From contig PIVM01000005.1 of NCBI GenBank assembly GCA_003353945.1, forward strand, positions 21,351 to 85,350: a stretch of DNA of 64,000 nucleotides, read 5' to 3'. The position numbers were made by a program, and so were the translations under genes. This document shows, piece by piece, positions 1,350-20,891 of this stretch. The notes below the pieces were generated by a model, which did no database searches, was not told where the DNA came from, and worked only from the letters and a program-made list of their open reading frames with translations. Numbering within the stretch: position 1 is the stretch's first letter; every line of letters begins with the position of its first letter. The DNA is from Gammaproteobacteria bacterium. GTDB lineage: Bacteria; Pseudomonadota; Gammaproteobacteria; Pseudomonadales; PIVM01.

Positions 1350-1883
1350 TCACTGCACGCTACGTACCAATCGAACACCACCAGTGTTGCTACGATGGTA
1401 ACTACTGGAATAGCCATAACCGAAATAAACGTACCATGCGCTTTTTGGATCACTGGCTTTGGCCGAAGCCGACCAAACATTCAAACCCGGATCAAGAGGA
1501 AAGACCGACGTATTGATCGCAGGTACCACACATTGTTCCTCGACAATAGAATACAGCTCTTTAAGATTGGGCAAACGCCAATCGCTGTAACCGGCAAATT
1601 CACTAATATCAGCCCGTTGCAAAGCCTCAGCCCAAGTAAATAAACCTGCAGACCCGCCGCAGGAACTGTCCCAGAGTTCGCCTGCTTCACCCTCAAGACA
1701 ACGCTTCCACATCAAACCCGTACGCATGTCAGTGGCTGTACCATCTTCTGCCCCTTCCTCTTCATGGATACTAAATTGTGCCGTGGGCGTGCTGGCAGGA
1801 ATCCCTTCCGTCTGGCAAGTCTGCTGTGCCAACACATAACACGGCATCATCATAATGATTGCCACTATACAGTTTTTCCACAT
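1350..1883 (-). CDS. small secreted DUF1566/Lcl C-terminal-type domain protein
   Basis: ORF 1350..1928. The start was chosen at MWKNCIVAIIMMMPCYVLAQQ (ATG 1883) by analogy with its paralogue at 7374; both share the same upstream GGGAGTGG RBS. Motifs TGLMWKRC, SDWRLPNLKEL and a terminal VRLVR are typical of DUF1566. Confidence 0.8.
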   Translation of the reverse strand: MWKNCIVAIIMMMPCYVLAQQTCQTEGIPASTPTAQFSIHEEEGAEDGTATDMRTGLMWKRCLEGEAGELWDSSCGGSAGLFTWAEALQRADISEFAGYSDWRLPNLKELYSIVEEQCVVPAINTSVFPLDPGLNVWSASAKASDPKSAWYVYFGYGYSSSYHRSNTGGVRLVRSVQ

Positions 1884-1973
1884 AATTCCACTCCCGGAGT
1901 AATCCATTTTTGCACAATCACTCACCAATATTTTTTAAACACACTGCAGCACATTACATAACACGCAGTATCA

Positions 1974-4900
1974 TCACTCTTCGCTACGAACCAGCCTCAC
2001 ATGACGCACGTCATCACGTCTGGAATAGTAATTGGCATAACCGTATTTGAACCCGAGTTGCCATGCGTGGTTTGAGCTGTTGGCACTCGCCGAAGCCGTC
2101 CAGTATCCATTCGAAACCGTATTGGGAAAGTACTGCGTATCAATTGCCGGACTGTGAGTATTCAAATTCAGCAGGCTTTTTAATTCCTTCACTGTCGGCA
2201 TACGCCAATCCGCATGACCGCAATAAGTTGCCTCATTCACCCTGTCGGTATAGGCCTGTGTATTACAATAGATTGACGCATCACCGTCATAGCCGTAACA
2301 GATGGCACCATCGTCATCTTGATAACCATTGGCTCCGGCATTGGTAGTAGAATCTGTGTTATACCAATTGTAGAGGTCATCGGCATCGTGCAATCCTTCA
2401 TTGCCTATCGTGGAATCGCTTCCTTTTTTCACTTCCCAGGTCAAGCCGGTCACGTTGTCTTGGACGCAATCCCATTCCTCAGCATCTGCTAGTAATGCCG
2501 CACCTTCTGAATCAATTTTTGTAAAGCTAAAACCGGCATGGCCATCGTCGTCGTCGTAATCGGTAACATCCCGCCCATGAGCGCAATCCTGTTGTTCATC
2601 AGTTTCGCCTATGCAAGTAGCGTTGTTACCGCTTGGGGCATTACCGCCCCAGATAAGCCCTGTATCGTTTAGAGGCTTGATAAGCACTGCCGCATCACAG
2701 GCATCACCTATACCGTTGTTGGCGCCACCGCGGTTGCCAGTGTCTTCTTGTCCAGGGTTATTGGCATCAGGGCAGTTATCACCTTGGGGTGAACGGTTGG
2801 GATCACCGTTGACGGGATCAATGACGTAAACGCCATCGCCATCTGAGTCATTACAGTAATCGGCATTGTTATCCGGATTCGCAATGGTATGACAGCTATC
2901 AACAGTTGGATCATCGTCAGCCGCTGCATTATAGAGACCATCTCCATCAGTGTCGGCGCAGACTGCAGCATCCTGACTGGCATTTGCACGGTTCGGGCAG
3001 TTGTCGCCAACACCGTTGTCATCTGCCAGGTCATAGTGTCCATCACTGTCCGTATCGGCACAGGCGGCCGGGTTGTTGTCCGCACGCTTCACGCCCACAC
3101 ATTTGTCGCCCCCATCAACTTCATTAACGCCATCACCATCGGTATCAACAAAACCGGCATCATCACAGACATCACCAATAGCATCACCGTCTCCATCGGC
3201 CTGCCCTGGATTTACATCTTCTGGACAGTTATCACCTTGGGGTACGCGGTTGGGATCACCATTGATAGGATCAATCACATAAACGCCATCGCCGTCTGGG
3301 TCATGACAGTAATCAGCATTGTTATCCGGATTTGAAATGTTCGGACAGCTATCCACAGTTGGATCATCGTCAGCCGCTGCATTATAGAGACCATCTCCAT
3401 CAGTGTCGGCGCAGACTGCAGCATCCTGACTGGTATTAGCGCGGTTCGGGCAGTTGTCGCCAACACCGTTGTCATCTGCCAGGTCATAGTGTCCATCACT
3501 GTCCGTGTCAGCACACGCAGCCGGGTTGTTGTCCGCACGCTTCACACCCACACAGGTATCCGCCCCATCAGCCTCGTTAACACCGTCGCCATCGGTATCG
3601 ATAATACTGGGCTCATCACAGACATCGCCAATACCATCACCGTCTTCATCGGCCTGCCCTGGATTCGCCATTTCCGGACAATTATCACCTTGGGGCACAC
3701 GAACCGGGTCACCATTGACGGAGTCAATGACGTATACGCCATCCTCATCTGGGTCATTACAGTAATCAGGATTGTTATCCAGATTTGAAATGCTCGGACA
3801 ACTATCGACAGTTGTGTCATTATCGGCGGCGGCATTGTAGAGACCATCACCGTCCGTATCGGCACACGCCGCTAAATTTTGAGACACATTTTGACGTGCT
3901 GGGCAATTGTCATCCAGTTGCGGTAGGCCATCACCGTCCGTATCCGGACCTCGGGGTGTCGGGTCACAGACGTTGCCCTGGCTATCATTATCGTCATTTG
4001 CCTGAGAACTGTTATGTTGCAAGGTACAGTTGTCAATGGTATCCGGTACGCTATCACCATCCTTATCCAGATCACAGGCATCACCGAGATTATCACCATC
4101 CAGATTTGACTGATTTCCATTGGGTGTATTGATGCAATTATCCACCGTATCTTTCACACCATCGTTATCACTGTCATCGCCATTGCCATTGCCATTGCCA
4201 TTGCCATTGACAGCGTCACAGGCATCACCATTACCATCACCGTCCGTATCAGACTGACTTGGATTTATAACGTAAAGACAGTTATCCTCCGTATTATCAG
4301 CTCCATCACCATCCAGGTCTGAATCACAAAGATCGCCCTCTCCATCGTCATCCTGATCTGATTGGTTGGTGCTGTTGACGGAGGGACAGTTATCGGCATT
4401 GTTGGGAATCGAATCACCATCGATATCGGAATCACAGAGATCGCCTTCATTATCACTGTCAAAATCGGACTGATTGGCATTGGCCACATCGGGACAGTTG
4501 TCAGCCGTGTTGTCTAACTCATCACCATCCCGATCATTATCACATGCATCACCCAAATCATCGTTATCCACATTGGCTTGATCCGTATTGGCTACCGTGG
4601 GGCAGTTATCGACAGTATCGAGTATAAAGTCACTGTCTTGATCAAGATTTTTCTGTAACTGCTGCAATTCCTGTTCGATTAAGTCAAGAGCAGACACACT
4701 GTCTGGCATAACATACTGCTGCTTCAGGTCATCCACCAGCTTTTGCATCTGCGCCAACACATGGAGAATGGAAATTGAACTAATATCGCTGCCACTCCCA
4801 TTACCCGTTGACAATCTACCCCCGTTACTGGCAAAACTCTGGGACAACTCAGTCATGGCTTGACCGATATTGGTATACCCTTGCTCCATCAAAACGCCCA

Positions 4901-5612
4901 TAATCGACGCTGAAAGTAATGCCGCTTTTTGCGCAGCAGGCTTCGCTTTACCAAAGGCCTGCTCATCAGTAATATCAACCACATCCAATTCCGTTAAACT
5001 ACCTTCGCCACTAACTTCGCCACCACCTTCGCCAAGGTCGATTTCAAAATAATCAGCGACCAATTGATTGGAGATTTCAACGAGCGAACTGGTAATTTGC
5101 GGTTGGATTTCAGCGAGTTTAGTCGCCATATCGGTGAGGGGGGAGACATTAACGGTGATGGTCTCTTCGTCTGCAGAGGTATTACTGGGGTCTTCCGTAC
5201 TAGGCACATTGGCCAGCGATGACAGCAAAAAGTCATCGCCCACGCCAAATTGCTCACCAAAGTCAACGTGGTTCCCCTCTCTATTCAGGCAGCCGGAGGT
5301 GAGATCACAGACCATGCGAGTTTGCTCATCCGAACGCACATCAATCCTGAGGATGACAGGTTCGCCGCAAACCTGAGCTTGATATTGTCCCTGCTCATCG
5401 GTGACCGTATCGACAGGCTCTGAGGGCGATCGGGTATTCGATTCGACCGTTTGCACCTGGACCTTACCACCAATCAACAAGCCCTTGGCAACCTTACCCT
5501 TTACTTGCCGACAACTTGTTTGCGTATCATTAGTGCCGCCGGATGAACCGCCACCACCGCAGCCAGCAACTAACAAGAAACCAATCAACAAGGATGATGC
5601 GATCTTGTTCAC
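1974..5612 (-). CDS. giant lipoprotein: N-terminal domain, TSP3 calcium-binding repeats, 151-aa repeat modules, C-terminal DUF1566 domain
   Basis: 1212-aa ORF with a GTG start. Lipobox LLVAG-C followed by a GGGGSS linker. About 12 DNC(P)xxxNxxQxDxDxDGxGDxCD motifs. C-terminus carries ADWRMPTVKELKSL ... VRLVRSEE. Confidence 0.85.
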   Translation of the reverse strand: MNKIASSLLIGFLLVAGCGGGGSSGGTNDTQTSCRQVKGKVAKGLLIGGKVQVQTVESNTRSPSEPVDTVTDEQGQYQAQVCGEPVILRIDVRSDEQTRMVCDLTSGCLNREGNHVDFGEQFGVGDDFLLSSLANVPSTEDPSNTSADEETITVNVSPLTDMATKLAEIQPQITSSLVEISNQLVADYFEIDLGEGGGEVSGEGSLTELDVVDITDEQAFGKAKPAAQKAALLSASIMGVLMEQGYTNIGQAMTELSQSFASNGGRLSTGNGSGSDISSISILHVLAQMQKLVDDLKQQYVMPDSVSALDLIEQELQQLQKNLDQDSDFILDTVDNCPTVANTDQANVDNDDLGDACDNDRDGDELDNTADNCPDVANANQSDFDSDNEGDLCDSDIDGDSIPNNADNCPSVNSTNQSDQDDDGEGDLCDSDLDGDGADNTEDNCLYVINPSQSDTDGDGNGDACDAVNGNGNGNGNGDDSDNDGVKDTVDNCINTPNGNQSNLDGDNLGDACDLDKDGDSVPDTIDNCTLQHNSSQANDDNDSQGNVCDPTPRGPDTDGDGLPQLDDNCPARQNVSQNLAACADTDGDGLYNAAADNDTTVDSCPSISNLDNNPDYCNDPDEDGVYVIDSVNGDPVRVPQGDNCPEMANPGQADEDGDGIGDVCDEPSIIDTDGDGVNEADGADTCVGVKRADNNPAACADTDSDGHYDLADDNGVGDNCPNRANTSQDAAVCADTDGDGLYNAAADDDPTVDSCPNISNPDNNADYCHDPDGDGVYVIDPINGDPNRVPQGDNCPEDVNPGQADGDGDAIGDVCDDAGFVDTDGDGVNEVDGGDKCVGVKRADNNPAACADTDSDGHYDLADDNGVGDNCPNRANASQDAAVCADTDGDGLYNAAADDDPTVDSCHTIANPDNNADYCNDSDGDGVYVIDPVNGDPNRSPQGDNCPDANNPGQEDTGNRGGANNGIGDACDAAVLIKPLNDTGLIWGGNAPSGNNATCIGETDEQQDCAHGRDVTDYDDDDGHAGFSFTKIDSEGAALLADAEEWDCVQDNVTGLTWEVKKGSDSTIGNEGLHDADDLYNWYNTDSTTNAGANGYQDDDGAICYGYDGDASIYCNTQAYTDRVNEATYCGHADWRMPTVKELKSLLNLNTHSPAIDTQYFPNTVSNGYWTASASANSSNHAWQLGFKYGYANYYSRRDDVRHVRLVRSEE
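2720..3870 (-). repeat. about 2.5 tandem in-frame copies of a 453-nt (151-aa) coding repeat
   Basis: The anchor acagttggatcatcgtcagccgctgcattatagagaccatc recurs at 2902 and 3355, with a more diverged copy at 3808, giving an exact 453-nt period. Copies 1 and 2 are roughly 90-95% identical by eye. Confidence 0.8.
4179..4208 (-). repeat. (GCCATT)5 hexanucleotide microsatellite encoding (NG)5
   Basis: Five perfect gccatt units were read directly. They encode the GNGNGNGNGNG linker inside the 1212-aa lipoprotein. Confidence 0.9.
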
Positions 5613-6086: not shown

Positions 6087-6446
6087 TTATATTTGCAGAT
6101 ATCGCACTGTACATAGACCAAATAATCCCAGAGCAAATAAAACGATGGTGCTTTGTTCTGCTGATTTAGTCTTGTCCGTACTAGTGATAGCATCTATGCT
6201 AACGACAATATTATCAATTCCCCACCATTCATCCGACTGCGTTGCAGGATCTCGACTAAAATTACCGAGATAATTTGTAAGACCGGTACCATCATAAATA
6301 TTATCAGAAGATATGGAAGAACAACTCCAAACCGTATCTATCCCATTTTCAAAACCCGTTTCATATTGATTCAGCGGTATTGTCTGAGCGGTGGAGACAG
6401 CTAGCGCTAATGGCAAGCTAAGAAAAAACCCTTTGGCCGTATTCAT
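6087..6446 (-). CDS. small secreted protein with a degenerate PEP-CTERM-like C-terminal sorting signal
   Basis: RBS GGAGAGG and signal peptide MNTAKGFFLSLPLALAVSTAQ. The C-terminus is WGIDNIVVS...TKSAEQSTIVLFALGLFGLCTVRYLQI. This has the PEP-CTERM layout (DN-x-V motif, short polar motif, TM helix, basic residue), but with AEQ in place of PEP. Confidence 0.6.
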   Translation of the reverse strand: MNTAKGFFLSLPLALAVSTAQTIPLNQYETGFENGIDTVWSCSSISSDNIYDGTGLTNYLGNFSRDPATQSDEWWGIDNIVVSIDAITSTDKTKSAEQSTIVLFALGLFGLCTVRYLQI

Positions 6447-6524
6447 TGCGCCTCTCCACTTTTTTTCAGATACACGACTTTACAAGTTGTGGATATCTAC
6501 TCATATCAAACTTGTAGGTAGTAT

Positions 6525-6542
6525 TAGCAATGGAGATGCCAA
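6525..6542 (-). promoter_or_regulatory. sigma-54 (-24/-12) promoter TGGCAT-CTCCA-TTGCTA
   Basis: The reverse complement of tagcaatggagatgccaa has GG and GC correctly spaced. It lies about 80 nt upstream of the ATG at 6446 and about 124 nt downstream of the palindrome centre at 6658. Confidence 0.6.
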
Positions 6543-6638: not shown

Positions 6639-6665
6639 TGTGACACGCTATCGTGACATGTCACA
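6639..6665. promoter_or_regulatory. candidate enhancer (UAS): TGTGACAC-N6-GTGACATGTCACA
   Basis: An outer inverted repeat, TGTGACA N13 TGTCACA, contains the perfect 12-mer GTGACATGTCAC (6653-6664). It has the same layout and spacing as the site at 11305-11331. Confidence 0.5.
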
Positions 6666-6804: not shown

Positions 6805-7374
6805 TCATTGAGCGTCACGTACTAACCGCACATGACTGAAGTAGTCGACATCACCACCCTCACCGCTAAATTGCTCGCGGCTGTCAACGAAAGGAGCTCC
6901 ATCTTTGAAACGCACGAGCCATGACCCGTCTGAAACACTGCTACTGGCCGAAGACGACCAAACGCTCAAACCTGGATCATTGGGAAAAACCGTAGAATTT
7001 ATCGCAGGAGAATTACACTGAACTTCAACGATAGAACGAAGCTCCTTAAGATTAGGCAGGCGCCAATCGGTACGCCCTGCAAAGCCGCCACCGACGTTAA
7101 CAGTGTCTGACTGTTGTAATGCTCCGGCCCAGGTAAAGAAGCCTGTAGACTCAGACACGGCACAGGTAGACCCATTCCATAGTTCACCTATGTCAAGCTC
7201 CAGACAACGTTTCCACATTAAACCGGTACGGGTGTCAGTGGCCGTACCGTCTGGATGAATAACAAATTGCCCGGTCGGTGTGCTGGCGGGGATTGCCTCT
7301 ATTTGACAGATTTGCTCGGCAAACACATAACAGGGCATAATCATAATGACAGCCACTAAGCTGTTTTTCCACAT
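6805..7374 (-). CDS. small secreted DUF1566/Lcl C-terminal-type domain protein (paralogue of 1350..1883)
   Basis: Signal peptide MWKNSLVAVIMIMPCYVFAEQ; motifs TGLMWKRC, TDWRLPNLKELRSIVE and a terminal VRLVRDAQ. Confidence 0.8.
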   Translation of the reverse strand: MWKNSLVAVIMIMPCYVFAEQICQIEAIPASTPTGQFVIHPDGTATDTRTGLMWKRCLELDIGELWNGSTCAVSESTGFFTWAGALQQSDTVNVGGGFAGRTDWRLPNLKELRSIVEVQCNSPAINSTVFPNDPGLSVWSSSASSSVSDGSWLVRFKDGAPFVDSREQFSGEGGDVDYFSHVRLVRDAQ

Positions 7375-7443: not shown

Positions 7444-10400
7444 TTACTCTCCGCTACGCACCAACCGCACACCATAAGGGCAGGAGCGGCCATCAGCGCT
7501 GGTGCTGTCACTGTCATAAAAAAAGTCGACTAGCCACGCGTCGTCTGAAAAGCCAGCATACGCCGAAGACGACCAGTATCCGTATCCGTAATCCGGCCAC
7601 CGGTTTCCACAATACTCTTCCGGTAGTGTATATCGTGTATTGGGAAAATACGCCGTATCAATGGCCGAATTGTATGCATTTAAATTAACCAGACCTTCCA
7701 GTTCATTTATCGACGGCACACGCCAGTCAGTAAAGCCGCATAGTTCATATTTATTACTAACCTCGACCAGTTCATTCCAGCTACCTTTACCGTCATAACG
7801 CGTCCCATACCCTGCTGTAAGCAATGCCGTCTTACCACCCCAGAGGTATAATCGACCCGCATCGTGAACTCCCTCGTCATTCGTTTTCACTTCCCACACC
7901 AGACCGGTCACATTATCGCGCACACAGGCCCATGGCTGTGTGCTATAGTCGAGCGACTGGTTTTCCAATGCTTTTCCATCGTCACCCATTTTCGTGTAGC
8001 TAAAACCTGCATGACCATCACTATCATTGTTATGGGTAGCATCTCGCCCATGAGAACAATCCTGCTGGCCAATGGTTTCACCATCACAGCCTTCACTGTT
8101 GCCGGATGGGTAGCTGCCACCGAAGGTGAGACCGGTGTCATTGAGCATCGTCTTTGTTGTGTTAATATCAAGTTTAATGTCTCTGATAGCCACACTGTCA
8201 TTGTTTTCTTGGACAATGCTGAGCACTGCCTGACCATCAATAAGAATGACCAGATCATTGACTGAGAAGGTGAACTTCCATGGTTCAAAGCGGCCATCCT
8301 CTTGCCAACAAAGCGCGCCTTCTTCACATTCTGTAATCAGCACACCATCAAGGTATACACGAACCGGTGCTGAACTATCAAATCCGCTACCACCCCATTC
8401 ACCTGAGATACGGGCACCCGTAATGACTTGATTGACTGGCACAGTAAAATTCAAATTCTGAACCTCACCCCAGTCATAGGGATAATCACCTTCTCCACAT
8501 TTGGGCCAGCAGGGGGGTGTTAGAAAGACATCACTAAGCGCAATTTCTATCAAATCGTCACAAACATCACCGATGCCATTTCCGTTTTTGTCTGCTTGAT
8601 CCTTATTTGGAATGTTCGGACAGTTATCCCCCCCTACTCCATCATCGTTTGCTAGATCATAGTATTCATCACCATCCGTATCGGCACACGCTCCTGGATT
8701 ATTATCTGCTCGTTTGACTTCCGGACAGTTATCATCCATCAACGCAATCCCATCACCATCTGCATCCGGACCTCGAGGCGTTGGATCGCAAGCATTGCCC
8801 AGGCTGTCATTATCGTCATTTGCCTGAGAGCTGTTGTGGTGTGAGGGACAGTTGTCAGTGCTATTCGGCACGTTATCACCGTCCTTATCCGAATCGCATA
8901 CATCACCCAGACCATCACCATCCATGTCTGCTTGATCACCATTGGAAGTATTGAGGCAATTATCAGTAGAATCTTCCACCCCATCACTATCGCTGTCGTT
9001 AAAAGTGTCACAAGCATCACCAATGCCGTCACCGTCCACATCAGACTGGCTGGAATTTGACACGGAAGGGCAGTTATCCCCGGTGTTATTCGCACCGTCA
9101 CCGTCCTTATCCAGATCGCAGACATCACCCAGATCGTCACCGTCCAGATTGACCTGATCACCATTGGGTGTATTGAGGCAATTATCAGTAGAATCTACCA
9201 CCCCATCACTATCGCTGTCGTTAAAAGTGTCACAAGCATCACCAATGTCATCGCCATCCACATCAGACTGACTGGGATTTGACACGGAAAGACAGTTATC
9301 CCCACTGTTATTATTTCCATCACCATCCAGATCCGAATCACAGACATCACCCAGACCGTCACCGTCCAGATCAGCTTGATCACCATTGGGTATATTGAGG
9401 CAATTGTCAGTGGAATCTACCACCCCATCACTATCACTGTCGTTGAACGTGTCACAGGCATCACCAATGCCATCGCCGTCCACATCAGACTGACTGGGAT
9501 TTGAAACGGAAGAGCAGTTATCCCCGGTGTTATCCTTTCCATCACCATCTTTGTCCAGATCGCAGACATCACCCAAATCGTCACCGTCCAGGTTAGCCTG
9601 ATCCTCATTGGGGGTATTGAGGCAATTATCAGTAGAATCTGCCACCCCATCATTATCGCTGTCATTGAACGTGTCACAGGCATCACCGGTCCCATCGCCA
9701 TCCACATCTGCCTGACTGGTATTGGAAATGGAAGGACAGTTATCCCCGGTATTATTCACACCATCACCATCCAGATCCGAATCACAGTTATCGCCTTCGC
9801 CATCGTTATCCTGATCGGCCTGATCGGGATTACTAACAAGTGGGCAGTTGTCAACGCTGCCTAATATCAAGTCGCTATCTTCATCAAGCCTTCCTTGTAT
9901 TTGCATCAACTCTAGTCTGATCATGCCAAGATCAAGCGTGCCGTGCAGTTGCTCCAGATCATCAATTAATACTTGCATTTTCGCAAACACATGCAAGATA
10001 GAAATCGAACCGACACCGCTGCCGCTAATCGGCAAAAAACTACCTCCGTTGCCAGCAAAACTCGTGGACAGTGCAGTCATGCCTGCACCAATATTGGTAA
10101 ACCCCTGGTCCATCAAAACGCCCATCAGTGCCGCCGAAACCAGAGCCGCTTTTTGCGCGATCGGTGTCGCTTTACCAAAGGCTTGCTCATCAGTGATATC
10201 GACCACTTCAAGTTCCGTTAAACTGCCTTCGCCTGTATCGATTTCAAAATACTCTGCAACCAACTGATTGGCCTGCTCTACAACTTCACTGGTAATAACC
10301 GATTGAATTTCAGCCAACTTAGCCGCCATATCGGTAAGTGGAGAGACATTCACGATGATAGGCTCGTCATCGGCAGAAGTATCACTGGCAGGGTCCGCTA

Positions 10401-10791
10401 TCGAAGACAATAAAAAATCATCATCCAAGGCGAATCGCGCGCCAAAATCGACTTGATTTCCCTGTCTGTCCAGACAACCCTTAGTGAGATCACAGACCAT
10501 GCGAGTCTGCTCATCTGCACGCACATCCACCCTGAAAATAACCGGATCACCACAAATCTCAGTTTGGTACTGACCCTGCTCATCGGTAATCGTATCGACG
10601 GGTTCGGCGGATGATTGGGAATTTGATTCGACGGGTTGCACCTGGACCTTGCCACCGATCAGCAAGCCCTTGGCTACTTTGCCGCTGACCTGCCGACATT
10701 GATCTGGTGCCGCACCACCAGAAGAAGAACCACCACCACAACCGGCAATGACTAAAAGACAGATCAGCAAGGACGATGCGAGTTTGTTCAC
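7444..10791 (-). CDS. giant lipoprotein: shared N-terminal domain, TSP3 repeats, unknown beta-rich domain, C-terminal DUF1566 domain
   Basis: 1115-aa ORF with a GTG start in the same context as its paralogue. Lipobox LVIAG-C GGGSS. The N-terminal roughly 330 aa are colinear with the 1212-aa protein. About 12 DNCxxxxNxxQ motifs. C-terminus carries TDWRVPSINELEGL ... VRLVRSGE. Confidence 0.85.
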   Translation of the reverse strand: MNKLASSLLICLLVIAGCGGGSSSGGAAPDQCRQVSGKVAKGLLIGGKVQVQPVESNSQSSAEPVDTITDEQGQYQTEICGDPVIFRVDVRADEQTRMVCDLTKGCLDRQGNQVDFGARFALDDDFLLSSIADPASDTSADDEPIIVNVSPLTDMAAKLAEIQSVITSEVVEQANQLVAEYFEIDTGEGSLTELEVVDITDEQAFGKATPIAQKAALVSAALMGVLMDQGFTNIGAGMTALSTSFAGNGGSFLPISGSGVGSISILHVFAKMQVLIDDLEQLHGTLDLGMIRLELMQIQGRLDEDSDLILGSVDNCPLVSNPDQADQDNDGEGDNCDSDLDGDGVNNTGDNCPSISNTSQADVDGDGTGDACDTFNDSDNDGVADSTDNCLNTPNEDQANLDGDDLGDVCDLDKDGDGKDNTGDNCSSVSNPSQSDVDGDGIGDACDTFNDSDSDGVVDSTDNCLNIPNGDQADLDGDGLGDVCDSDLDGDGNNNSGDNCLSVSNPSQSDVDGDDIGDACDTFNDSDSDGVVDSTDNCLNTPNGDQVNLDGDDLGDVCDLDKDGDGANNTGDNCPSVSNSSQSDVDGDGIGDACDTFNDSDSDGVEDSTDNCLNTSNGDQADMDGDGLGDVCDSDKDGDNVPNSTDNCPSHHNSSQANDDNDSLGNACDPTPRGPDADGDGIALMDDNCPEVKRADNNPGACADTDGDEYYDLANDDGVGGDNCPNIPNKDQADKNGNGIGDVCDDLIEIALSDVFLTPPCWPKCGEGDYPYDWGEVQNLNFTVPVNQVITGARISGEWGGSGFDSSAPVRVYLDGVLITECEEGALCWQEDGRFEPWKFTFSVNDLVILIDGQAVLSIVQENNDSVAIRDIKLDINTTKTMLNDTGLTFGGSYPSGNSEGCDGETIGQQDCSHGRDATHNNDSDGHAGFSYTKMGDDGKALENQSLDYSTQPWACVRDNVTGLVWEVKTNDEGVHDAGRLYLWGGKTALLTAGYGTRYDGKGSWNELVEVSNKYELCGFTDWRVPSINELEGLVNLNAYNSAIDTAYFPNTRYTLPEEYCGNRWPDYGYGYWSSSAYAGFSDDAWLVDFFYDSDSTSADGRSCPYGVRLVRSGE
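8810..9700 (-). repeat. about 4 tandem in-frame copies of a 222-nt (74-aa, two TSP3 units) coding repeat
   Basis: The anchor ttgaggcaatt recurs at 8951, 9173, 9395 and 9617, an exact 222-nt period. The protein repeat DACDTFNDSD(S/N)DGV.DSTDNCLN... occurs four times. Confidence 0.8.
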
Positions 10792-11190: not shown

Positions 11191-11209
11191 TAGCAATACA
11201 TATGCCAAC
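11191..11209 (-). promoter_or_regulatory. sigma-54 (-24/-12) promoter TGGCAT-ATGTA-TTGCTA
   Basis: This is the reverse complement of tagcaatacatatgccaac. It shares the flanks TAGCAAT-N4-ATGCCAACTTT with the 6525 promoter. It lies about 125 nt from the palindrome centre and about 400 nt upstream of the GTG at 10791, implying a long leader. Confidence 0.6.
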
Positions 11210-11304: not shown

Positions 11305-11331
11305 TGTGACATGTAATCGAGACATGTCACA
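11305..11331. promoter_or_regulatory. candidate enhancer (UAS): TGTGACATGT-N6-GACATGTCACA
   Basis: An outer inverted repeat, TGTGACA N13 TGTCACA, with the same spacing as 6639-6665. It sits in the divergent region between the giant lipoprotein operon and the EBP gene. Confidence 0.5.
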
Positions 11332-11532: not shown

Positions 11533-13143
11533 ATGTCAACAGAACAAACCCTAATCACGCAAAGCCCTGCCACCATACAAACGTCCGAGGTGTTGATTCC
11601 AACGGCGACCATAATCTATCACCCCAATCTTGAACGCATCGGAGAAGAAGCACCACTACTTGAATTGAAACAACATCAATCACAAGATATTTCTCGATTA
11701 ACGCCGGATTTCTCACAACCCTCAACAGATAAAAGCTGCAATATTGCGGACCCTTATATTAGTCGCAAACCGCTTACCCTATCCCTTGTCAATGGTGGCC
11801 TGAGAATAGAGAAATCGGCAGAACTTACGGGTAAAGTTTCGGTAAATGATCGCTTACTGATAACCGAGCTGTTTATCGTAGGTGAAGAATGGCGAAACGG
11901 TGTCATTATTTCAATGAACAACCGTGTTGTCCTTTTTTTACACTTTTCTCCACAGCAACGCGATTTATCATTAAATAAACACGGTTTACTGGGTGAAAGT
12001 TCGGCGATTTGCAAGGTAAGACGAACCATTGAGCGTGTTGCAGATTTGCAAGTCCCCGTACTGATCCGAGGAGAAACAGGCACTGGCAAGGAGCTTGTCG
12101 CGCAGGCATTACATAATAGCAGTCCAAGAAAACACCGAAAGTTTGTCAGCGTCAATGTGGGAGCGATACCGGATACGCTGGCTATTTCTGAGATATTTGG
12201 CGCAAAAAAAGGTGCCTTTACTGGCGCTTCAAAAGATCGAGCTGGCTATTTTCAACAAGCCGATAACAGCACGCTGTTTTTAGATGAAATTGGTGACGCC
12301 AACGAACAAGTACAGGTTGCACTGCTGCGCACACTCGAAACGGGTGAAGTAACACCTGTAGGTAGTACGGGATCTATCCATGTGGATGTTCGGCTAGTAG
12401 CCGCTACGGATGCCAATCTTGAAAAAAAGATTTTGGATGAGCGCTTTCGCAGCCCACTATTACAGCGCTTAGCCGGATTTGAAATTCGCATTCCGCCGCT
12501 ACGCTCACGACGCGACGATATAGGACGTCTCTTTATCTATTTCTTGACCATCGAAATAAATAATGTTGGCGATGAAAAACACCTCGCTAACACATCACAT
12601 CATGTTTCATTTTGGGCAAGTGTTTTTGAAAAAGCCTGTTTATACAACTGGCCAGGGAACATCCGTCAGCTAAAAAACATAGCTCAGCAACTTGCCATTT
12701 ACAATCGTGACGCCGAGCAGTTAACCATTCCAGACCATATTCTTGAGTTATTTTCACTGCAGCCCAAGCAGAATGTCTCTGCACCGGAAACAGCTCAAAC
12801 AGCAAACACACCAGATCCACTAACAGAAGATACCCAGCACGAATCCACCCCTGCCTCACCGCGCCGAAAACCGAGCACTGTTACCGAACAGGAACTATTG
12901 GACGCACTCGAAGCACAACGCTGGGACTTAAAAGGAACAGCCGAGCGACTTAATATTTCACGCGCAGCGCTTTATAAAATAATCGACAACAACCCCTCTG
13001 TACGCACTGCGAGCGATTTCAGTCTTGAAGAACTCAACTCTGCCTATCAAAAGAGCGATGGCGATATTGACGTAATGGTCGATAAACTGAAGGTTTCCAA
13101 AGCAGCACTAAAACGCAGGCTCAAGGATCTTAGCCTAAATTAA
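11533..13143 (+). CDS. sigma-54-dependent transcriptional activator (bacterial enhancer-binding protein, VasH-like by context)
   Basis: AAA+ core with Walker A GETGTGKE, the sigma-54 contact loop GAFTGA, and a DEIG Walker B. C-terminal Fis-type HTH TAERLNISRAALYKII, plus a second HTH-like segment VDKLKVSKAALKRRLKDL. Confidence 0.9.
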   Translation: MSTEQTLITQSPATIQTSEVLIPTATIIYHPNLERIGEEAPLLELKQHQSQDISRLTPDFSQPSTDKSCNIADPYISRKPLTLSLVNGGLRIEKSAELTGKVSVNDRLLITELFIVGEEWRNGVIISMNNRVVLFLHFSPQQRDLSLNKHGLLGESSAICKVRRTIERVADLQVPVLIRGETGTGKELVAQALHNSSPRKHRKFVSVNVGAIPDTLAISEIFGAKKGAFTGASKDRAGYFQQADNSTLFLDEIGDANEQVQVALLRTLETGEVTPVGSTGSIHVDVRLVAATDANLEKKILDERFRSPLLQRLAGFEIRIPPLRSRRDDIGRLFIYFLTIEINNVGDEKHLANTSHHVSFWASVFEKACLYNWPGNIRQLKNIAQQLAIYNRDAEQLTIPDHILELFSLQPKQNVSAPETAQTANTPDPLTEDTQHESTPASPRRKPSTVTEQELLDALEAQRWDLKGTAERLNISRAALYKIIDNNPSVRTASDFSLEELNSAYQKSDGDIDVMVDKLKVSKAALKRRLKDLSLN

Positions 13144-13454: not shown

Positions 13455-13488
13455 TGTGACATCCCAGACATGACTATGTCGTGTCACT
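13455..13488. promoter_or_regulatory. degenerate member of the TGTGACA/TGTCACA palindrome family upstream of hcp
   Basis: The sequence is TGTGACATcccaGACATgactATGTCgTGTCACt. It forms nested inverted repeats built from the same GACAT/ATGTC half-sites, about 90 nt upstream of the -24/-12 element at 13554. Confidence 0.35.
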
Positions 13489-13553: not shown

Positions 13554-13569
13554 TGGCACGGTTATTGAT
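13554..13569 (+). promoter_or_regulatory. sigma-54-like promoter TGGCACG-GTTA-TTGAT
   Basis: The -24 element TGGCACG is perfect and the spacing is correct. The -12 element is TTGA rather than TTGC. It lies about 90 nt upstream of the hcp ATG. Confidence 0.5.
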
Positions 13570-13659: not shown

Positions 13660-14142
13660 ATGGCTGTTGATATGTTTTTAAAAATCGAAGGTGTGGATGG
13701 TGAAGCAATCGATCATGCGCACGGTGACGAAATTGATTTGCTAGCCTGGAGTTGGGGCATGAGTCAATCAGGCAGTATGCATGTTGGCACTGGCGGCGGT
13801 GCTGGCAAAGTCAGTGTTCAGGATATCTCACTAACAAAATACATTGATAAATCTACACCCAACCTGATCAAAACTTGCTGCACAGGTAAACACTACCCGG
13901 AAGCTAAAATCACCGTTCGCAAAGCGGGTGACAAGCCGGTTGAATATTACATTATTACGATGACCGATGTATTGGTGACTTCCGTATCCACCGGAGGCAG
14001 CGGTGGCGAAGACCGCTTGACTGAAAATGTATCGCTAAATTTTGCCAAGGTTAAAGTGGAATATACACCGCAGGCGAAAGACGGCAGCGCTGGCGCCACT
14101 ATTGAAACTGTTTTTGATATTGAAGCGAATATCTCAGAATAA
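13660..14142 (+). CDS. tssD: type VI secretion tube protein Hcp (TssD)
   Basis: 160 aa. MAVDMFLKIEGVDGEA..HGDEIDLLAWSWGMSQSG....GGGAGKVSVQDISLTKYIDKSTPNL is the canonical Hcp1-family N-terminus. Strong RBS GGAGGG. Confidence 0.92.
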   Translation: MAVDMFLKIEGVDGEAIDHAHGDEIDLLAWSWGMSQSGSMHVGTGGGAGKVSVQDISLTKYIDKSTPNLIKTCCTGKHYPEAKITVRKAGDKPVEYYIITMTDVLVTSVSTGGSGGEDRLTENVSLNFAKVKVEYTPQAKDGSAGATIETVFDIEANISE

Positions 14143-14186: not shown

Positions 14187-14193
14187 CTATTTA

Positions 14194-14361: not shown

Positions 14362-14399
14362 AAAAAAAAGCCCCATGCAAAAAACATGGGGCTTTTTTT
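14362..14399. terminator. bidirectional rho-independent terminator
   Basis: Stem gccccatg/catggggc (14370-77 / 14385-92), flanked by an A-run on one side and a T-run on the other. It lies between convergent hcp and the 14422..17589 gene. Confidence 0.7.
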
Positions 14400-14421: not shown

Positions 14422-17400
14422 TTAAGGCAGTGTACCTCCCACTTCCGTTCCGGCATCCAACGATGCGCGACCATCGCTACCGGTACCGAGAATGTTGTAC
14501 TTCACAACACCGGATGCACATCCAGTTTCCGTACAATAGGTATCGTAGTACCCGCCTGATACTTTCTTGCTGGTTATCGATACATGATCGGCAACAACAC
14601 CAACCACATCACCGGTAATCTGGACATGCTGCCAACTGCCACTGTTGGTTGAATCCGTATCGCCCGTACCGGAGATACTAAAGCCACCAAAGATTCGGCC
14701 ATGCGCATAGATATTGCCGACAGAACTTGGATAACCACAGTTGTTGTATTCAAAAGTGGTATCGCCACTCATCTGCACTTCCCAGGTTGCGTTTCCGCCC
14801 AGAGGACAGTTGTAGGTGGTCTTGCCCAAGTCACCAAGACCGCCGGGATCAACGCAGTTTTGGTTGCCGGTACGTACATTGTTGATCTCACAGCGCACTT
14901 CAATTGCCCAGGTCAACCAGGAATCGATCATCAGCGCGTTGTAATCGACATCAGGTATCTCACAGGCGTTGCCGATACCATTCAGGTCATCATCCTCTTG
15001 CCCAGGATTAGCTACCGTAGGACAGTTATCAAAGGCATCCATATGGGTGTCACTGTCGGAGTCATCGCACACATCACCGAAACCATCGCCATCCATATTC
15101 GCCTGATCGGCGTTGCTGATATCGGGGCAGTTATCGGTATCATTGGCGCGGTTATCGCCGTCACGATCCTGATCACAAGCATCACCCAAGCCATCGCCAT
15201 CGATATTGGACTGACTGCCATTGGCATCAAACGGGCAGTTATCGGCGGCATTGACCACGCCGTCATTATCCCAGTCATTGTCACAGGCATTACCGATGCC
15301 ATCCTGATCATCATCCTCCTGACCTGCATTGGCGGTATTCGGGCAGTTATCATTTTCATTCGCCCAACCGTCATTATCACTGTCGTTCATAGAATCACAG
15401 GCATCACCGAAACCGTCGCCATCAGTGTCGGTCTGGTCATTGCTCACATTGGGGCAGTTATCAATACCGTTAGCAAAACCATCGCCATCGATATCGGGAT
15501 CACACAGATCCCCCATACCGTCACCGTCCAGATCCAGCTGCGAACCGTTGGCGGTATCGATGCAGTTGTCATCCGCATTGGCCACACCATCACCATCGTT
15601 ATCGATAATGCTATCGCACGCATCACCGATACCGTCGTTATCAATATCAGTCTGGTTACTGTTCGCCAGATCGATACAATTATCGACGCTGTTGGAAACA
15701 CCATCATTATCATTATCGATAAAGGAGTCACAGGCGTCACCAACACCGTCAGCATCAACGTCGGTCTGGTCGTTGCTCAGGTCAGGACAGTTATCCGTAC
15801 TGTTGTCATACCCGTCGCCATCACGATCCGTATCACAGGCATCACCAACACCATCGCTGTCCATATCAGACTGTGTCGCATTGGCCGTATCAGGACAGTT
15901 GTCATCATCATTTGCACGACCGTCACCGTCGTTATCAATCAATGAATCGCAAGCATCACCAATACCATCCTGATCAACATCGGTTTGAGTTGGATTACTG
16001 ATGGCGGGACAGTTATCTTCATTATCGTTGTATCCATCACCGTCGCTATCCAGCTCACTGTCACAGGCATCGCCATAACCATCGTTATCCGCATCGGCCT
16101 GGTCAGCGTTGGCATCGTTAGAGCAGTTATCGGACCCATTCAGATAACCGTCTCCATCGATATCGTCATCACACACATCACCTAAACCATCGCCATCAAT
16201 ATCTTCCTGGCCAGCATTCGCTGCCTCAGGGCAGTTATCGTCCATATTGGCTCTACCGTCACCATCGTTATCGATCAGCAAGTCGCAGGCGTCACCGATA
16301 CCATCCCCATCAATATCGGTCTGGTTGGTGTTAGCGATATCCGGACAGTTATCCGTATCATTGCCATGGCTGTCACCGTCTTTGTCGTTATCACAGACAT
16401 CACCTAAACCATCATTATCGAGATCGGACTGGTCATTTTCCGTATCGGGACAGTTGTCAGCGGCATCGGCAGTACCGTCACCATCGCGATCAACAAAGCT
16501 GTCACAGGCATCCCCGATTCCGTCGTTATCAAGATCGGTCTGGTCAGCATTCGCTGTGTCTGGACAGTTGTCGGCACTGTTCTCAAGGCCGTCACCGTCG
16601 TTATCATTGATACCGTCACAGGCATCACCGGTTCCGTCACCGTCGATGTCTTGCTGCAACGCATTCGCAACGTTAGGACAGTTATCTTCATTATCCGCCA
16701 CGTTGTCCTGATCAAAATCGATCAGATCATCACAGTCGTCTCCCACACCGTCACGATCAATATCGGTTTGCGCTGGATTTGATAGGTTGACACAGTTGTC
16801 CACACTATCCGCTACGTTATCACCGTCACTATCCACCTTTGGATCACAGGCATCACCAATGCTATCAGCATCAACATCAAGCTGGTCGGTGTTGGCAACA
16901 AGCGGACAGTTGTCAGCGCCGTTGTTGCGGCCGTCACCATCTTTGTCGTTGTCACAGGCATCACCGGTCGCATCATTGTCGAGGTCGGCCTGGCTGTTGG
17001 GAATGCTAAGACAGTTATCCACGTTATCGCCAAAACCGTCTCCGTCAGAATCGGTCAGGTAATCACACACGTCACCGATGCCATCACCATCGGCATCTGC
17101 TTGATTTTCATTGGCAAGTTCCGGACAGTTGTCACTGGCATCCGGATGGGAATCACCATCGGTGTCGTTAGTAGAACAGTTTAATTGGAAGCTTGCTGTG
17201 CGTGTATGAATCAAACCCGTACCATCCCAATCAAAGGCAAGCTTTATGGTTCTGGCTTGCGTCTCACTCTCTTCACCATTGGCGCAAGCCAGGGCAATGG
17301 CGCTGCTGTAGGGTGTACCGCTAGTACAGCTATTATTGCTAATGCTTGGGGTTGGTCCGTTGACTGAGTAGCAAATCACATCGACAGAACTCAATCCACT

Positions 17401-17589
17401 TAAAGTCACACTCCCACTGGCACCCAGATTGGTTCCCGCGATCGGATTGGTAAATATTTGCGTTGCGGATGGTGCAGGAGTCGCCCCACCCCCGTTTGGT
17501 GGAGGCGTACAACCCGCAACAATGCCCAACAAGCCAGGAATTGCGACAGATAACAGACGCTGGCTAAAATTCATTTTGAACTTACCCAT
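14422..17589 (-). CDS. giant lipoprotein: N-terminal Ig-like domain, about 20 TSP3 repeats, unknown C-terminal domain
   Basis: 1055 aa with RBS AGGAG. Lipobox GIVAG-C TPPP. I counted 20 DNC(P)xxxNxxQ motifs by eye. The C-terminal roughly 190 aa (NALMIDSWLTWAIEVRCEINN...) match no family I recognise. Confidence 0.85.
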   Translation of the reverse strand: MGKFKMNFSQRLLSVAIPGLLGIVAGCTPPPNGGGATPAPSATQIFTNPIAGTNLGASGSVTLSGLSSVDVICYSVNGPTPSISNNSCTSGTPYSSAIALACANGEESETQARTIKLAFDWDGTGLIHTRTASFQLNCSTNDTDGDSHPDASDNCPELANENQADADGDGIGDVCDYLTDSDGDGFGDNVDNCLSIPNSQADLDNDATGDACDNDKDGDGRNNGADNCPLVANTDQLDVDADSIGDACDPKVDSDGDNVADSVDNCVNLSNPAQTDIDRDGVGDDCDDLIDFDQDNVADNEDNCPNVANALQQDIDGDGTGDACDGINDNDGDGLENSADNCPDTANADQTDLDNDGIGDACDSFVDRDGDGTADAADNCPDTENDQSDLDNDGLGDVCDNDKDGDSHGNDTDNCPDIANTNQTDIDGDGIGDACDLLIDNDGDGRANMDDNCPEAANAGQEDIDGDGLGDVCDDDIDGDGYLNGSDNCSNDANADQADADNDGYGDACDSELDSDGDGYNDNEDNCPAISNPTQTDVDQDGIGDACDSLIDNDGDGRANDDDNCPDTANATQSDMDSDGVGDACDTDRDGDGYDNSTDNCPDLSNDQTDVDADGVGDACDSFIDNDNDGVSNSVDNCIDLANSNQTDIDNDGIGDACDSIIDNDGDGVANADDNCIDTANGSQLDLDGDGMGDLCDPDIDGDGFANGIDNCPNVSNDQTDTDGDGFGDACDSMNDSDNDGWANENDNCPNTANAGQEDDDQDGIGNACDNDWDNDGVVNAADNCPFDANGSQSNIDGDGLGDACDQDRDGDNRANDTDNCPDISNADQANMDGDGFGDVCDDSDSDTHMDAFDNCPTVANPGQEDDDLNGIGNACEIPDVDYNALMIDSWLTWAIEVRCEINNVRTGNQNCVDPGGLGDLGKTTYNCPLGGNATWEVQMSGDTTFEYNNCGYPSSVGNIYAHGRIFGGFSISGTGDTDSTNSGSWQHVQITGDVVGVVADHVSITSKKVSGGYYDTYCTETGCASGVVKYNILGTGSDGRASLDAGTEVGGTLP

Positions 17590-17825: not shown

Positions 17826-20800
17826 TTAAGGAACAGGAATCTCTACCAGACCGCCGGACATATCGCCCTGGCTGTAAACGCCCCACTCGATTGCACTGCC
17901 TAGTCCACAGTTACCCCAAGAGGCTGTGACATCATCACCGCCAACCGTGGACCACAAACAGGCATTCTCGCTTTCCGGGCTGATCTCGTATTTATCACCA
18001 CTACCCCCACCAAACTTCATGCGCTGGGCAGCGTTGTTTTCATCACAGGCAGACGTTGCGACCTGAATATCAGTGCCGGTGCGAACCATACAGGTTCCAC
18101 GCGATACGGACTTGAGCAGATAGACCGTGCTATTGCTGGCACCCACCTGGATAAACTCCCAACGATGATTGATGTCGCTAGCAGAGTTACAGCCTTGCAG
18201 ACGTACATCGTTATCGCTCTTGGCATACATACACTCACCACTCTGCTTGTGCTTGATGGCAAACCAAGGTTCCTCCTGGCAAGCATCACCCACACCGTTT
18301 CCATCAGAATCGGTTTGGTCATTTGCGACATCAGGGCAGTTGTCGTACATATCAGCATAACCATCACCGTCGGTATCCGGGCCATCCGGTGTTGGATCAC
18401 AGACATCACCGGTACCATCGGTATCATTATCAGCCTGGTTGGTGTTGGCATTATCCGGGCAGTTATCTGAGGCATTCGCTACCGTGTCACCGTCACGATC
18501 ATCGTCACAGGCATCGCCTTCGCTATCGCCATCAAGGTTAGACTGATCATTGGCCAGGTTTGGACAGTTATCCACATCATTGAGATATCCATCATTATCC
18601 CAATCAGTATCACAGGCATTGCCGGTACCGTCCTGATCATCGTCCTCTTGCCCTGCATTCGCATCGTCTGGACAGTTATCGACGGTATCAACCCAACCGT
18701 CACCATCCCGATCAATTGATGAATCACAGACATCACCGATACCGTCGTTATCTAGATCAGTCTGGTCGTTGGCAACTTCTGGGCAGTTATCGACTCCATT
18801 GTCGTAGCCATCGCCATCAAGGTCCGTATCACAGACATCACCAATGAGATCGATATCAGTATCTTTCTGGTCAACATTGGCCGCTTCCGGACAGTTATCA
18901 TTGCTATTCGCCCAACCATCACCGTCGTTGTCAATCAGCAGGTCACAGGCATCACCAATACCGTCCTGATCAACATCAATCTGATCGAGGTTGGCAACAT
19001 CGACACAGTTATCACTCTCGTTTGGCACGGTATCACCGTCGTTATCGATCAGTGAATCACAGGCATCACCAAGACCATCCTGATCTGCATCGGTCTGATC
19101 ATTGGCAAGGTCTGGGCAATTATCCGCGACATTACCGTAACCATCACCATCCCGATCGGCATCACACGCATCACCGGTACCATCAATATCAAGGTCAGCC
19201 TGAGTGGCATTGGCAACAGACGGACAGTTGTCATTATCGTTCGCCCAACCATCACCGTCGTTATCAACCAGTAAATCACAGGCGTCGCCAATACCGTCCA
19301 GGTCTTCATCAATCTGGTTAGCATTGCTGATGTCGGGGCAGTTATCGATACCGTCAATCACACCGTCGTTATCCGAGTCTGCATCACAGGCATCGCCAAC
19401 ACCGTTGTTATCAGCATCAATCTGGTCAGCGTTGGCTACATTCGGGCAGTTGTCACTGTCATTAAGCTCGCCGTCACCGTCACGGTCATCATCACAGGCA
19501 TCACCGTACTGGTCGCTATCCATATTTTCCTGTCCAGCATTGGGCACGTTCGGACAGTTATCATCCGCGTTGGCTTCGCCGTCACCGTCGTTGTCGACAA
19601 CGGGATCACAGGCGTCACCAATACCGTCCAGATCTTCATCGATCTGGTTGGTGTTGGCTACATCAGGACAGTTATCCGTGTCGTTGTTGACACTGTCACC
19701 GTCGCGATCACTGTCGCAGGCATCGCCAAACTCATCGTTATCAATGTTGGCTTGATCATTGGCAAGGTCAGGACAGTTGTCTTCAGCGTCTGCTGTGCCA
19801 TCCCCATCACGATCAACGAAGAGATCACACGCATCGCCGATGCCGTCATTATCGAGATCAATCTGGTCAAGGTTTGGTATATCAACACAGTTATCGTCTT
19901 CATCGGCAATGCTATCGAGGTCTGTGTCGTTAATGCTATCACAGGCATCACCAATACCATCATTGTCGGTATCCTGTTGAAGCGTATTGGGTACGTTGAC
20001 GCAGTTATCATCAACATCCGCTACGTTATCGCGATCAGAATCAATGAGGTCATCACAGGCATCACCGATATTGTCGTTATCCAGATCGGCCTGATCTGTG
20101 TTGGCAACATCAACACAGTTATCAGAGCCATCAGCCACACCGTCGCCATCACTGTCAGTTAAGTGATCACAGACATCGCCGATACCATCAGCATCAGCAT
20201 CAGCCTGGTCAGTATTGGCTGCGTCGGGGCAGTTATCAGTATCGTTATTGCGACCATCACCGTCTCGGTCACTGTCACAAACATCACCTATGCTGTCATT
20301 ATCGAGATCCAGCTGATCATTGTTCTGAACAAGCAGACAGTTATCCTGATCATCCGCAATAAAATCCCCGTCTGTATCAGTCAAGGGATCACATGCATCA
20401 CCCAATCCATCACCATCCGCATCAGCCTGGTCTTCATTGGCAATCGCAATACAGTTGTCACTAATATCTGACACACCGTCACCATCACCATCGGTTGGCC
20501 CCTGACATGCCGGAGTATCCAAAGTAAAATAGCCTGATGCAGCTTTGCTCTCGCCGGAATCACCTTCCCACGCCAATCTCACTGTCTGCGCACCACACTG
20601 AGCCAGGCTGACTGTGCTGTTTAATACCTCATCCCCGGCACTACACGCCCCCGCCGAGATCGAAGGGTAGCTATCGATCGCATAACACACAGTCTTGCCA
20701 TTAAGGTTGATAATGCCAACGTCTGCTGGCTCACTGGTGAAAACAGTTCCGTTTGCTGTATTGAAGTATTCTACTTGCGTACCTGTTGGTGGAGGCGTAC

Positions 20801-20891
20801 AGCCGGCGGCAAGAATAAGAGCCATTGGGAATGTTGGCCCCGCCCATTGCATCATTCTTTTGGTGATAGTTTTCGTTGTTTTCCTAGACAT
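17826..20891 (-). CDS. giant lipoprotein: N-terminal Ig-like domain, about 20 TSP3 repeats, ricin-B/beta-trefoil-like C-terminal domain
   Basis: 1021 aa with RBS GGAGAA. Lipobox ILAAG-C TPPP. 20 DNC(P)xxxNxxQ motifs, colinear with the 14422 gene. The C-terminal roughly 150 aa carry three Q/H-x-W-like motifs (HRWEF, AQRMKF, IEWGV) and conserved Cys residues. Confidence 0.85.
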   Translation of the reverse strand: MSRKTTKTITKRMMQWAGPTFPMALILAAGCTPPPTGTQVEYFNTANGTVFTSEPADVGIINLNGKTVCYAIDSYPSISAGACSAGDEVLNSTVSLAQCGAQTVRLAWEGDSGESKAASGYFTLDTPACQGPTDGDGDGVSDISDNCIAIANEDQADADGDGLGDACDPLTDTDGDFIADDQDNCLLVQNNDQLDLDNDSIGDVCDSDRDGDGRNNDTDNCPDAANTDQADADADGIGDVCDHLTDSDGDGVADGSDNCVDVANTDQADLDNDNIGDACDDLIDSDRDNVADVDDNCVNVPNTLQQDTDNDGIGDACDSINDTDLDSIADEDDNCVDIPNLDQIDLDNDGIGDACDLFVDRDGDGTADAEDNCPDLANDQANIDNDEFGDACDSDRDGDSVNNDTDNCPDVANTNQIDEDLDGIGDACDPVVDNDGDGEANADDNCPNVPNAGQENMDSDQYGDACDDDRDGDGELNDSDNCPNVANADQIDADNNGVGDACDADSDNDGVIDGIDNCPDISNANQIDEDLDGIGDACDLLVDNDGDGWANDNDNCPSVANATQADLDIDGTGDACDADRDGDGYGNVADNCPDLANDQTDADQDGLGDACDSLIDNDGDTVPNESDNCVDVANLDQIDVDQDGIGDACDLLIDNDGDGWANSNDNCPEAANVDQKDTDIDLIGDVCDTDLDGDGYDNGVDNCPEVANDQTDLDNDGIGDVCDSSIDRDGDGWVDTVDNCPDDANAGQEDDDQDGTGNACDTDWDNDGYLNDVDNCPNLANDQSNLDGDSEGDACDDDRDGDTVANASDNCPDNANTNQADNDTDGTGDVCDPTPDGPDTDGDGYADMYDNCPDVANDQTDSDGNGVGDACQEEPWFAIKHKQSGECMYAKSDNDVRLQGCNSASDINHRWEFIQVGASNSTVYLLKSVSRGTCMVRTGTDIQVATSACDENNAAQRMKFGGGSGDKYEISPESENACLWSTVGGDDVTASWGNCGLGSAIEWGVYSQGDMSGGLVEIPVP

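Follow-up and report, generated by a model that had tools for sequence, protein, structure and literature searches.

Four predicted lipoproteins with thrombospondin type 3 repeat arrays and differing C-terminal domains at a single gammaproteobacterial locus

Architecture of the four lipoproteins

The 64,000-nucleotide stretch analysed here (the window; positions 21,351 to 85,350 of contig PIVM01000005.1, assembly GCA_003353945.1, from a Pseudomonadales member of the Gammaproteobacteria) encodes four large, acidic, predicted lipoproteins, A to D, dominated by thrombospondin type 3 (TSP3) repeats. Their genes lie on the minus strand (window coordinates 1974-5612 for A, 1212 amino acids; 7444-10791 for B, 1115 amino acids; 14422-17589 for C, 1055 amino acids; and 17826-20891 for D, 1021 amino acids) and make up 13.2 kb of a 19.5-kb span. 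Each product begins with a signal peptide containing a Lol-type lipobox, defined as [LVI][ASTVI][GAS]C with Asp excluded at position +2, that is LLVAGC/GGG in A (VAGC-G), LVIAGC/GGG in B (IAGC-G), GIVAGC/TPP in C (VAGC-T) and ILAAGC/TPP in D (AAGC-T), with Gly at +2 in A and B and Thr in C and D. A first-pass annotation of this DNA had given the same four lengths and +2 residues and had placed about 13.5 kb of such coding sequence in a 21-kb block, and the concentration at one locus that it described is borne out by these figures. Judging from their signals, A to D are probably Sec/Lsp-processed lipoproteins that are sorted to the outer membrane.

The Pfam model TSP_3 (PF02412; gathering cut-off 25 bits) matched A, B, C and D with 116, 246, 507 and 490 bits over 6, 10, 20 and 20 stretches, respectively, and chance is excluded because the E-values reach 1e-156. 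The motif DNC..N..Q was counted 11, 11, 20 and 20 times (about 12, 12, 20 and 20 had been estimated by eye). The roughly 60 repeats with the full cysteine-paired consensus that had been claimed correspond to 65 DNC units, 59 of which are canonical, with the second cysteine 19-20 residues on; the consensus derived for the unit is D-G-D-G-x-x-[ND]-x-x-D-N-C-x4-N-x2-Q-x-D-x-D-x-D-G-x-G-D-x-C-D. Each position of the second calcium-loop motif is occupied by Asp in 48-58 of the 59 canonical units. Overall, Asp accounts for 16-23% of the residues in the four proteins and their net charge ranges from -171 to -236 (-199 in A). Compared with solved structures, C matched animal proteins only, with COMP (3fby) first (E 2.4e-43), followed by thrombospondin-2 and thrombospondin-1, and a three-unit fragment aligned residue by residue with human COMP, with the cysteines in register (E 2e-48). 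From this homology, we infer that the units bind Ca2+ and are closed by disulfides.

The arrays of A and B depart from this regular pattern. A contains a super-repeat of three 151-amino-acid copies (453-nt period, 86% identity, window 2658-3917), in which canonical units are mixed with variant TSP3-like units whose second cysteine lies 13 residues after the first, ahead of the DxDxDG loop (DNCP..N.SQ...AxC-ADTDGDG); these variant units were not called by Pfam TSP_3 in A. B holds a single copy of the super-repeat, and its array includes 4.1 copies of a 222-nt double unit.

The four proteins form two paralogue pairs that have only the repeats in common. A and B are paralogous over their whole length, with N-terminal modules that are 71% identical, while C and D share 60% identity across 892 amino acids; the earlier description of four paralogues therefore holds within each pair, but not for a single four-member family. 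In A, the lipobox is followed by the N-terminal module (residues 19-330), six canonical TSP3 units, the super-repeat (residues ~566-985) and an Lcl_C (DUF1566) domain (residues 1049-1209). B has the lipobox, the same module, 11 TSP3 units, an orphan domain of ~140 amino acids (residues ~745-890) and Lcl_C at residues 956-1112. The lipobox of C precedes a cysteine-containing N-terminal domain of ~110 amino acids, 20 canonical units and an orphan, cysteine-containing C-terminal domain of 177 amino acids. D likewise carries 20 canonical units between its N-terminal domain, which weakly resembles that of C, and a predicted ricin-type β-trefoil (residues ~873-1021).

These C-terminal heads agree with those first proposed. 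Lcl_C was matched with 102 bits in A and 83 bits in B (cut-off 34.9) and was not found by Pfam in C or D, so that both the TSP3 and the DUF1566 assignments are supported above their cut-offs; the A head had no direct sequence counterpart among solved structures. The isolated C-terminus of D matched RicinB_lectin_2 with 30.5 bits (cut-off 25.6), scored 27.5 bits with Ricin_B_lectin (cut-off 29) and also matched the related CDtoxinA model, although of the three-fold QxW-type repeats just degenerate motifs (HRW, QRM and IEW) are visible. The C-terminal 177 amino acids of C had no Pfam match, homologue, PDB sequence match or metagenome locus, and a single-sequence AlphaFold model of this domain was discarded (predicted local distance difference test, pLDDT, 33). 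The ~140-amino-acid insert that precedes Lcl_C in B likewise had no match.

The N-terminal module of A and B (~290-300 amino acids) has no Pfam match. A word-seeded search with it missed all of its relatives and an exhaustive HMMER profile search was used, which retrieved 283 relatives at E<=1e-3, A and B included, from ~15 billion proteins. The match is N-terminal in every relative, and a lipobox was present in 132 of the 159 family sequences checked (profile matches plus a few cluster mates). Most relatives are 700-1000 amino acids long and their passenger regions differ (Ig, cadherin or none), as would be expected of an anchor-proximal base. Among the 58 relatives scanned, TSP_3 was found in five, A and B among them, and Lcl_C in A and B only, which are also the only ones seen to combine module, TSP3 and Lcl_C. 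Because no relative other than A and B themselves scored better than E 1e-23, the module has no close orthologue in the ~15 billion proteins. By sequence, then, it defines an uncharacterised family whose members mostly bear a lipobox.

AlphaFold, run with a 60-sequence alignment, gave a model of the A module with a pLDDT of 89 and a predicted template modelling score (pTM) of 0.88, in which a β-sandwich (residues 16-116) is followed by a helical bundle. The model was structurally closest to the non-heme domain at the N-terminus of PgcA (E 1e-4), a lipoprotein cytochrome of Geobacter that is found outside the cell, and transthyretin-like sandwiches came next; the modelled likeness to PgcA is a lead only. 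CarboxypepD_reg, one of two families suggested by the first-pass annotation for the N-terminal domains, found no Pfam match in A or B but is partly echoed by the transthyretin-like sandwich of the A model, and one relative of the module matches it at 3.7e-6. The other, CHB_HEX_C, was not upheld, having no match in A or B and only CHB_HEX_C_1 at E 3.1 in C; neither family was matched significantly in any of the four proteins.

Proteins with such repeats are common. With C as query, at least 6,901 proteins were retrieved at E<=1e-10 (8,000 candidates) from many bacterial and some archaeal lineages, carrying dozens of different accessory Pfam domains. The label 'eukaryote-style' used in the first-pass annotation is thus apt for the alignment with COMP, but the rarity that it implied was overstated. 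The best 120 matches contain 8-25 canonical cysteine-paired units (median 14), and 12 of these 120 have a lipobox-like N-terminus. Since repeat proteins of this kind abound in bacteria, A to D are, on sequence grounds, members of a large, known and little-studied class of bacterial TSP3-repeat proteins. Among the matches listed, the best identity (51%) stems from the repeats and the non-repeat domains of A to D occur in none; in the protein collection, A (identical to P0126) and B (P0127) each form a singleton cluster, and the proteins encoded next to them are singletons as well. Within the window, the domains of A to D recur in no other open reading frame (ORF) save two small DUF1566 proteins. 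No syntenic relatives were found in genome-contig scans with the A/B N-terminal module and the enhancer-binding protein described below as queries, and metagenome scans with the C-terminal domain of C and the N-terminal module of A gave no matches. The combination of domains in A to D is specific to this locus.

Operon structure, predicted regulation and neighbouring genes

Both A and B are followed on the same strand by a gene for a small secreted protein of ~180 amino acids, in essence a DUF1566 domain on its own. The gene 3' of A (1350-1883, Lcl_C 113 bits) is separated from the A stop codon by 45 nt and probably starts at the ATG of MWKNC, the mechanical ORF extending to 1928; its product has a Sec-type signal peptide, MWKNCIVAIIMMMPCYVLA, cleaved ahead of QQ. 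The gene 3' of B (6805-7374, Lcl_C 104 bits) lies 69 nt from the B stop codon and also encodes a signal peptide. The two small proteins are 58% identical, and this duplicated two-gene cassette, pairing a stalked with a free DUF1566 protein, is specific to the locus. The A operon contains in addition, between its promoter and A, an ORF of 119 amino acids (6087-6446, minus strand) that encodes a signal peptide as well as a hydrophobic helix at the C-terminal end, with Arg after it. The tail of its product (EWWGIDNIVVS, then after an interval AEQSTIVLFALGLFGLCTVRYLQI) resembles PEP-CTERM but lacks the PEP motif, and no Pfam or NCBIfam match was found for this ORF, which is missing from the otherwise homologous B leader.

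Partial control by sigma-54 had been suggested for this family, and at the level of motifs this holds and extends to hcp. Predicted promoters of the -24/-12 type, with properly spaced GG and GC elements, were located upstream of the A operon (6526-6541, minus strand, TGGCATCTCCATTGCT), the B operon (11192-11207, minus strand, TGGCATATGTATTGCT) and hcp (13554-13569, plus strand, TGGCACGGTTATTGAT), in the last case ~90 bp ahead of the start codon. The flank AAAGTTGGCAT-N5-ATTGCTA is identical at the A and B promoters. With the relaxed pattern TGGCAY-N5-TTGMW, three sites were found on both strands of the 64 kb against 0.78 expected, all three being these intergenic and properly oriented sites.

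Each promoter has a candidate enhancer palindrome (upstream activating sequence) 70-125 bp upstream. Those of A (6640-6664) and B (11306-11330) read GTGACA-N13-TGTCAC and lie at the same promoter distance, 104-123 bp upstream (~105-125 bp from the -24 element in A); that of hcp (13456-13487) reads GTGACA-N20-TGTCAC. Allowing spacers of 0 to 26 nt, the window contains five copies of GTGACA-N(0-26)-TGTCAC, all at this locus, four of them upstream of the three promoters. The fifth copy (GTGACATGTCAC, 1256-1267) is flanked by the A operon's small DUF1566 gene on one side and an unassigned 194-amino-acid ORF (640-1224, minus strand) on the other, and no sigma-54 promoter match was found near it.

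A sigma-54 enhancer-binding protein is encoded between the B operon and hcp (11533-13143, plus strand; Sigma54_activat 201 bits, HTH_8). It consists of an unassigned N-terminal region of ~140 amino acids, an AAA+ core and a Fis-type helix-turn-helix, and stays below the cut-off of every specific NCBIfam equivalog. The hcp gene (13660-14142, plus strand) encodes an orphan Hcp/TssD (T6SS_HCP 150 bits; NCBIfam TssD 64.5 bits, above cut-off), with no further type VI secretion system (T6SS) genes in the window, and is separated from the convergent gene C by a terminator-like, bidirectional hairpin (14363-14399). Taken together, the palindromes, the three promoter matches and the gene for the enhancer-binding protein suggest a single predicted regulon made up of the A operon, the B operon and hcp; the predicted co-regulation of hcp is specific to this locus. 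Neither motif was found upstream of C or D, the D upstream region being 20892-21510, and Rfam detected no RNA family in the window, the long A and B leaders included.

The gene directly upstream of D (21511-22392, minus strand) encodes an LsrF-type 3-hydroxy-5-phosphonooxypentane-2,4-dione thiolase of autoinducer-2 processing (511 bits), and no other lsr genes were identified nearby. Farther along the window lie a chemotaxis cluster with CheA, CheB and two MCP-type genes (25215-35021), followed by several hybrid histidine kinases and response regulators (36122-42676). At 46721-51930, a hybrid-cluster protein (hydroxylamine reductase) gene is divergent from an adjoining ORF of 1077 amino acids, an unusual fusion of a geranylgeranyl-reductase-like flavoprotein and a CysJ-like flavodoxin/FNR reductase. 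An ORF of 787 amino acids with an acidic N-terminal region (61562-63925, minus strand) had no Pfam or NCBIfam match.

Possible functions

The architecture described above is best read as a set of lipid-anchored TSP3 arrays presenting lectin-like heads, with a role in adhesion or in binding to matrix or particles, a reading to which we assign a probability of roughly 55%. After processing by Sec and Lsp, A to D would be lipid-anchored and sorted to the outer membrane, with a base domain near the membrane and a long, acidic, disulfide-stapled and calcium-binding TSP3 array linking that base to the C-terminal head. The head would be a C-type-lectin-like DUF1566 domain in A and B and a ricin-type trefoil in D, held away from the membrane in a calcium-dependent manner and available to glycans or surfaces. 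The A and B operons, each with its small secreted DUF1566 protein, would be driven from their sigma-54 promoters by the enhancer-binding protein encoded at the locus, which may also drive the orphan hcp, while C and D, having no such promoters, would fall outside this control. Lipidation, surface location, rod-like behaviour, type of ligand and regulation are all predictions from sequence.

Several points weigh against this reading. No Slam-like or other lipoprotein-export gene was identified among the ~30 window ORFs scanned, and in the best-studied bacterial TSP3 proteins (OmpA-type and TraB) the repeats lie on the periplasmic side, serving as linkers to a peptidoglycan-binding domain. In the solved animal structures, the type 3 'wire' winds round the lectin-like domain at the C-terminus instead of forming a straight rod. 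In Legionella, the Lcl head functions as a trimer that a collagen helix holds together, whereas A and B supply no trimerisation element, and the ligand specificity of DUF1566 varies even among Legionella species. The C head and the B insert, moreover, match nothing known.

The main rival explanation, possible if rather improbable, is that A to D face the periplasm, where the TSP3 arrays would be calcium-dependent spacers or tethers of the envelope and the heads would recognise peptidoglycan or a different glycan of the envelope. The inner leaflet of the outer membrane is the default destination of Lol-sorted lipoproteins, which accords with this location, as does the lack of an export partner gene nearby. 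There are precedents in TraB, whose TSP3 repeats join a barrel to an OmpA-like domain, and in two OmpA plus TSP_3 architectures among the C matches listed (P0006 and P0108). However, arrays of 20 repeats (~740 residues) seem well beyond what a periplasmic linker would need, ricin-type and DUF1566 domains usually serve as binding modules outside the cell, and Pfam found none of the peptidoglycan-binding domains OmpA, LysM and SPOR in A to D.

The Asp content and net charge of the four proteins would also suit polyanionic calcium sinks or matrix scaffolds, acting in buffering, polymer cross-linking or mineral nucleation, with heads that merely dock them. By analogy with thrombospondins, tens of Ca2+ ions may be bound per protein. 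Such a function is nevertheless unlikely to be the chief one, as a folded, disulfide-stapled unit so strictly conserved, together with distinct heads, points to more than bulk charge.

The hcp operons of Vibrio cholerae depend on sigma-54 and VasH, and A, B and hcp likewise share a promoter type and palindrome beside an enhancer-binding-protein gene, but it is very unlikely that A and B are T6SS accessories, e.g. contact-promoting adhesins co-expressed with Hcp, since the co-regulation is predicted from motifs, the window holds no further T6SS genes, proteins with Sec/Lsp signals are not T6SS substrates and C and D lack the motifs. We regard as equally far-fetched a scheme in which free small DUF1566 subunits join the tethered head in a hetero-oligomeric (Lcl-like, trimeric) lectin, forming a calcium-dependent contact adhesin deployed together with a T6SS through one enhancer-binding protein.

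Environmental genomes abound in bacterial TSP3 arrays, few of which have been studied functionally. The present locus offers a compact natural experiment, with one repeat scaffold, three to four heads, two types of base and a testable regulatory switch. It could serve to ask whether bacterial TSP3 repeats act as calcium-dependent spacers and which ligands are bound by DUF1566 and ricin-type heads. It leaves current understanding unchanged, in that this type of repeat, the disulfides within it and its deployment as a module in bacteria have been documented before.

Comparison with known systems

TSP3 repeats have been described in TraB, in OmpA-type proteins, for which a disulfide-dependent calcium-binding structure was reported, and in Saccharophagus enzymes. 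The bacterial TSP3 proteins (Myxococcus MtsC, TraB, OmpA-type proteins and Saccharophagus Lam16A) share with A to D the cysteine-paired, Asp-rich unit and the joining of long arrays to varied accessory domains; other members of the class are anchored by MYXO-CTERM tags, type IX secretion system C-terminal domains or OmpA domains. NCBIfam models built on such repeat proteins include those for MtsC and an Omp28-related selenoprotein, and neither identity was retained. With the MtsC model (NF047638; cut-off 350 bits), A and B score too low, C and D pass only by summing 7-9 stretches of repeat matches, and no MYXO-CTERM tag is present at the C-termini of A to D; the Omp28-selenoprotein score comes from the repeats alone. 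Given how widely the repeat occurs in bacteria, horizontal transfer from animals was rejected.

The N-terminal module of A and B recurs, over ~290 amino acids, in proteins of Marinobacterium jannaschii (WP_156948414) and Catenovulum maritimum (WP_048691497), with which A and B have in common a Gly-rich linker, a β-sandwich with TDxxGxY and MxCDxxxxC motifs and a helical bundle. Typical members of that family are 700-1000 amino acids long and, unlike A and B, lack TSP3 and Lcl_C. The family gene is followed on its 3' side by a gene for a ~370-amino-acid protein with a signal peptide in both M. jannaschii (L002 3901-4992) and C. maritimum (L004 11364-12536). These two proteins match each other at E 5e-27 and show a faint likeness to DUF5723; they may be functional partners of the module family. 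No counterpart occurs in the window, and no sigma-54 promoter was found near the family genes in the two genomes.

A stalk carrying a head is analogous in layout to two better-known systems, animal thrombospondins and Legionella Lcl. In thrombospondins and COMP, as in the layout proposed for A to D, a type 3 calcium 'wire' leads to a lectin-like globular domain. The animal proteins, however, have TSP_C, EGF repeats and a coiled-coil oligomerisation domain, none of which was found by Pfam in A to D, and the DUF1566 and ricin-type heads have folds unlike the thrombospondin globe and sit on bacterial lipoproteins.

In the surface adhesin Lcl of Legionella pneumophila, as in A and B, a long repetitive stalk ends in a DUF1566/Lcl_C domain (PMC11162425). 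The C-terminal domain of Lcl is C-type-lectin-like and trimeric, and binds sulphated glycosaminoglycans from its position on the stalk (PMC11162425). The two systems differ in how the domain is displayed. The Lcl stalk is a trimeric collagen helix (GXY) and that of A and B a TSP3 array; and Lcl is secreted by the type II secretion system and reattached through an amphipathic N-terminal helix, where A and B carry a lipobox instead.

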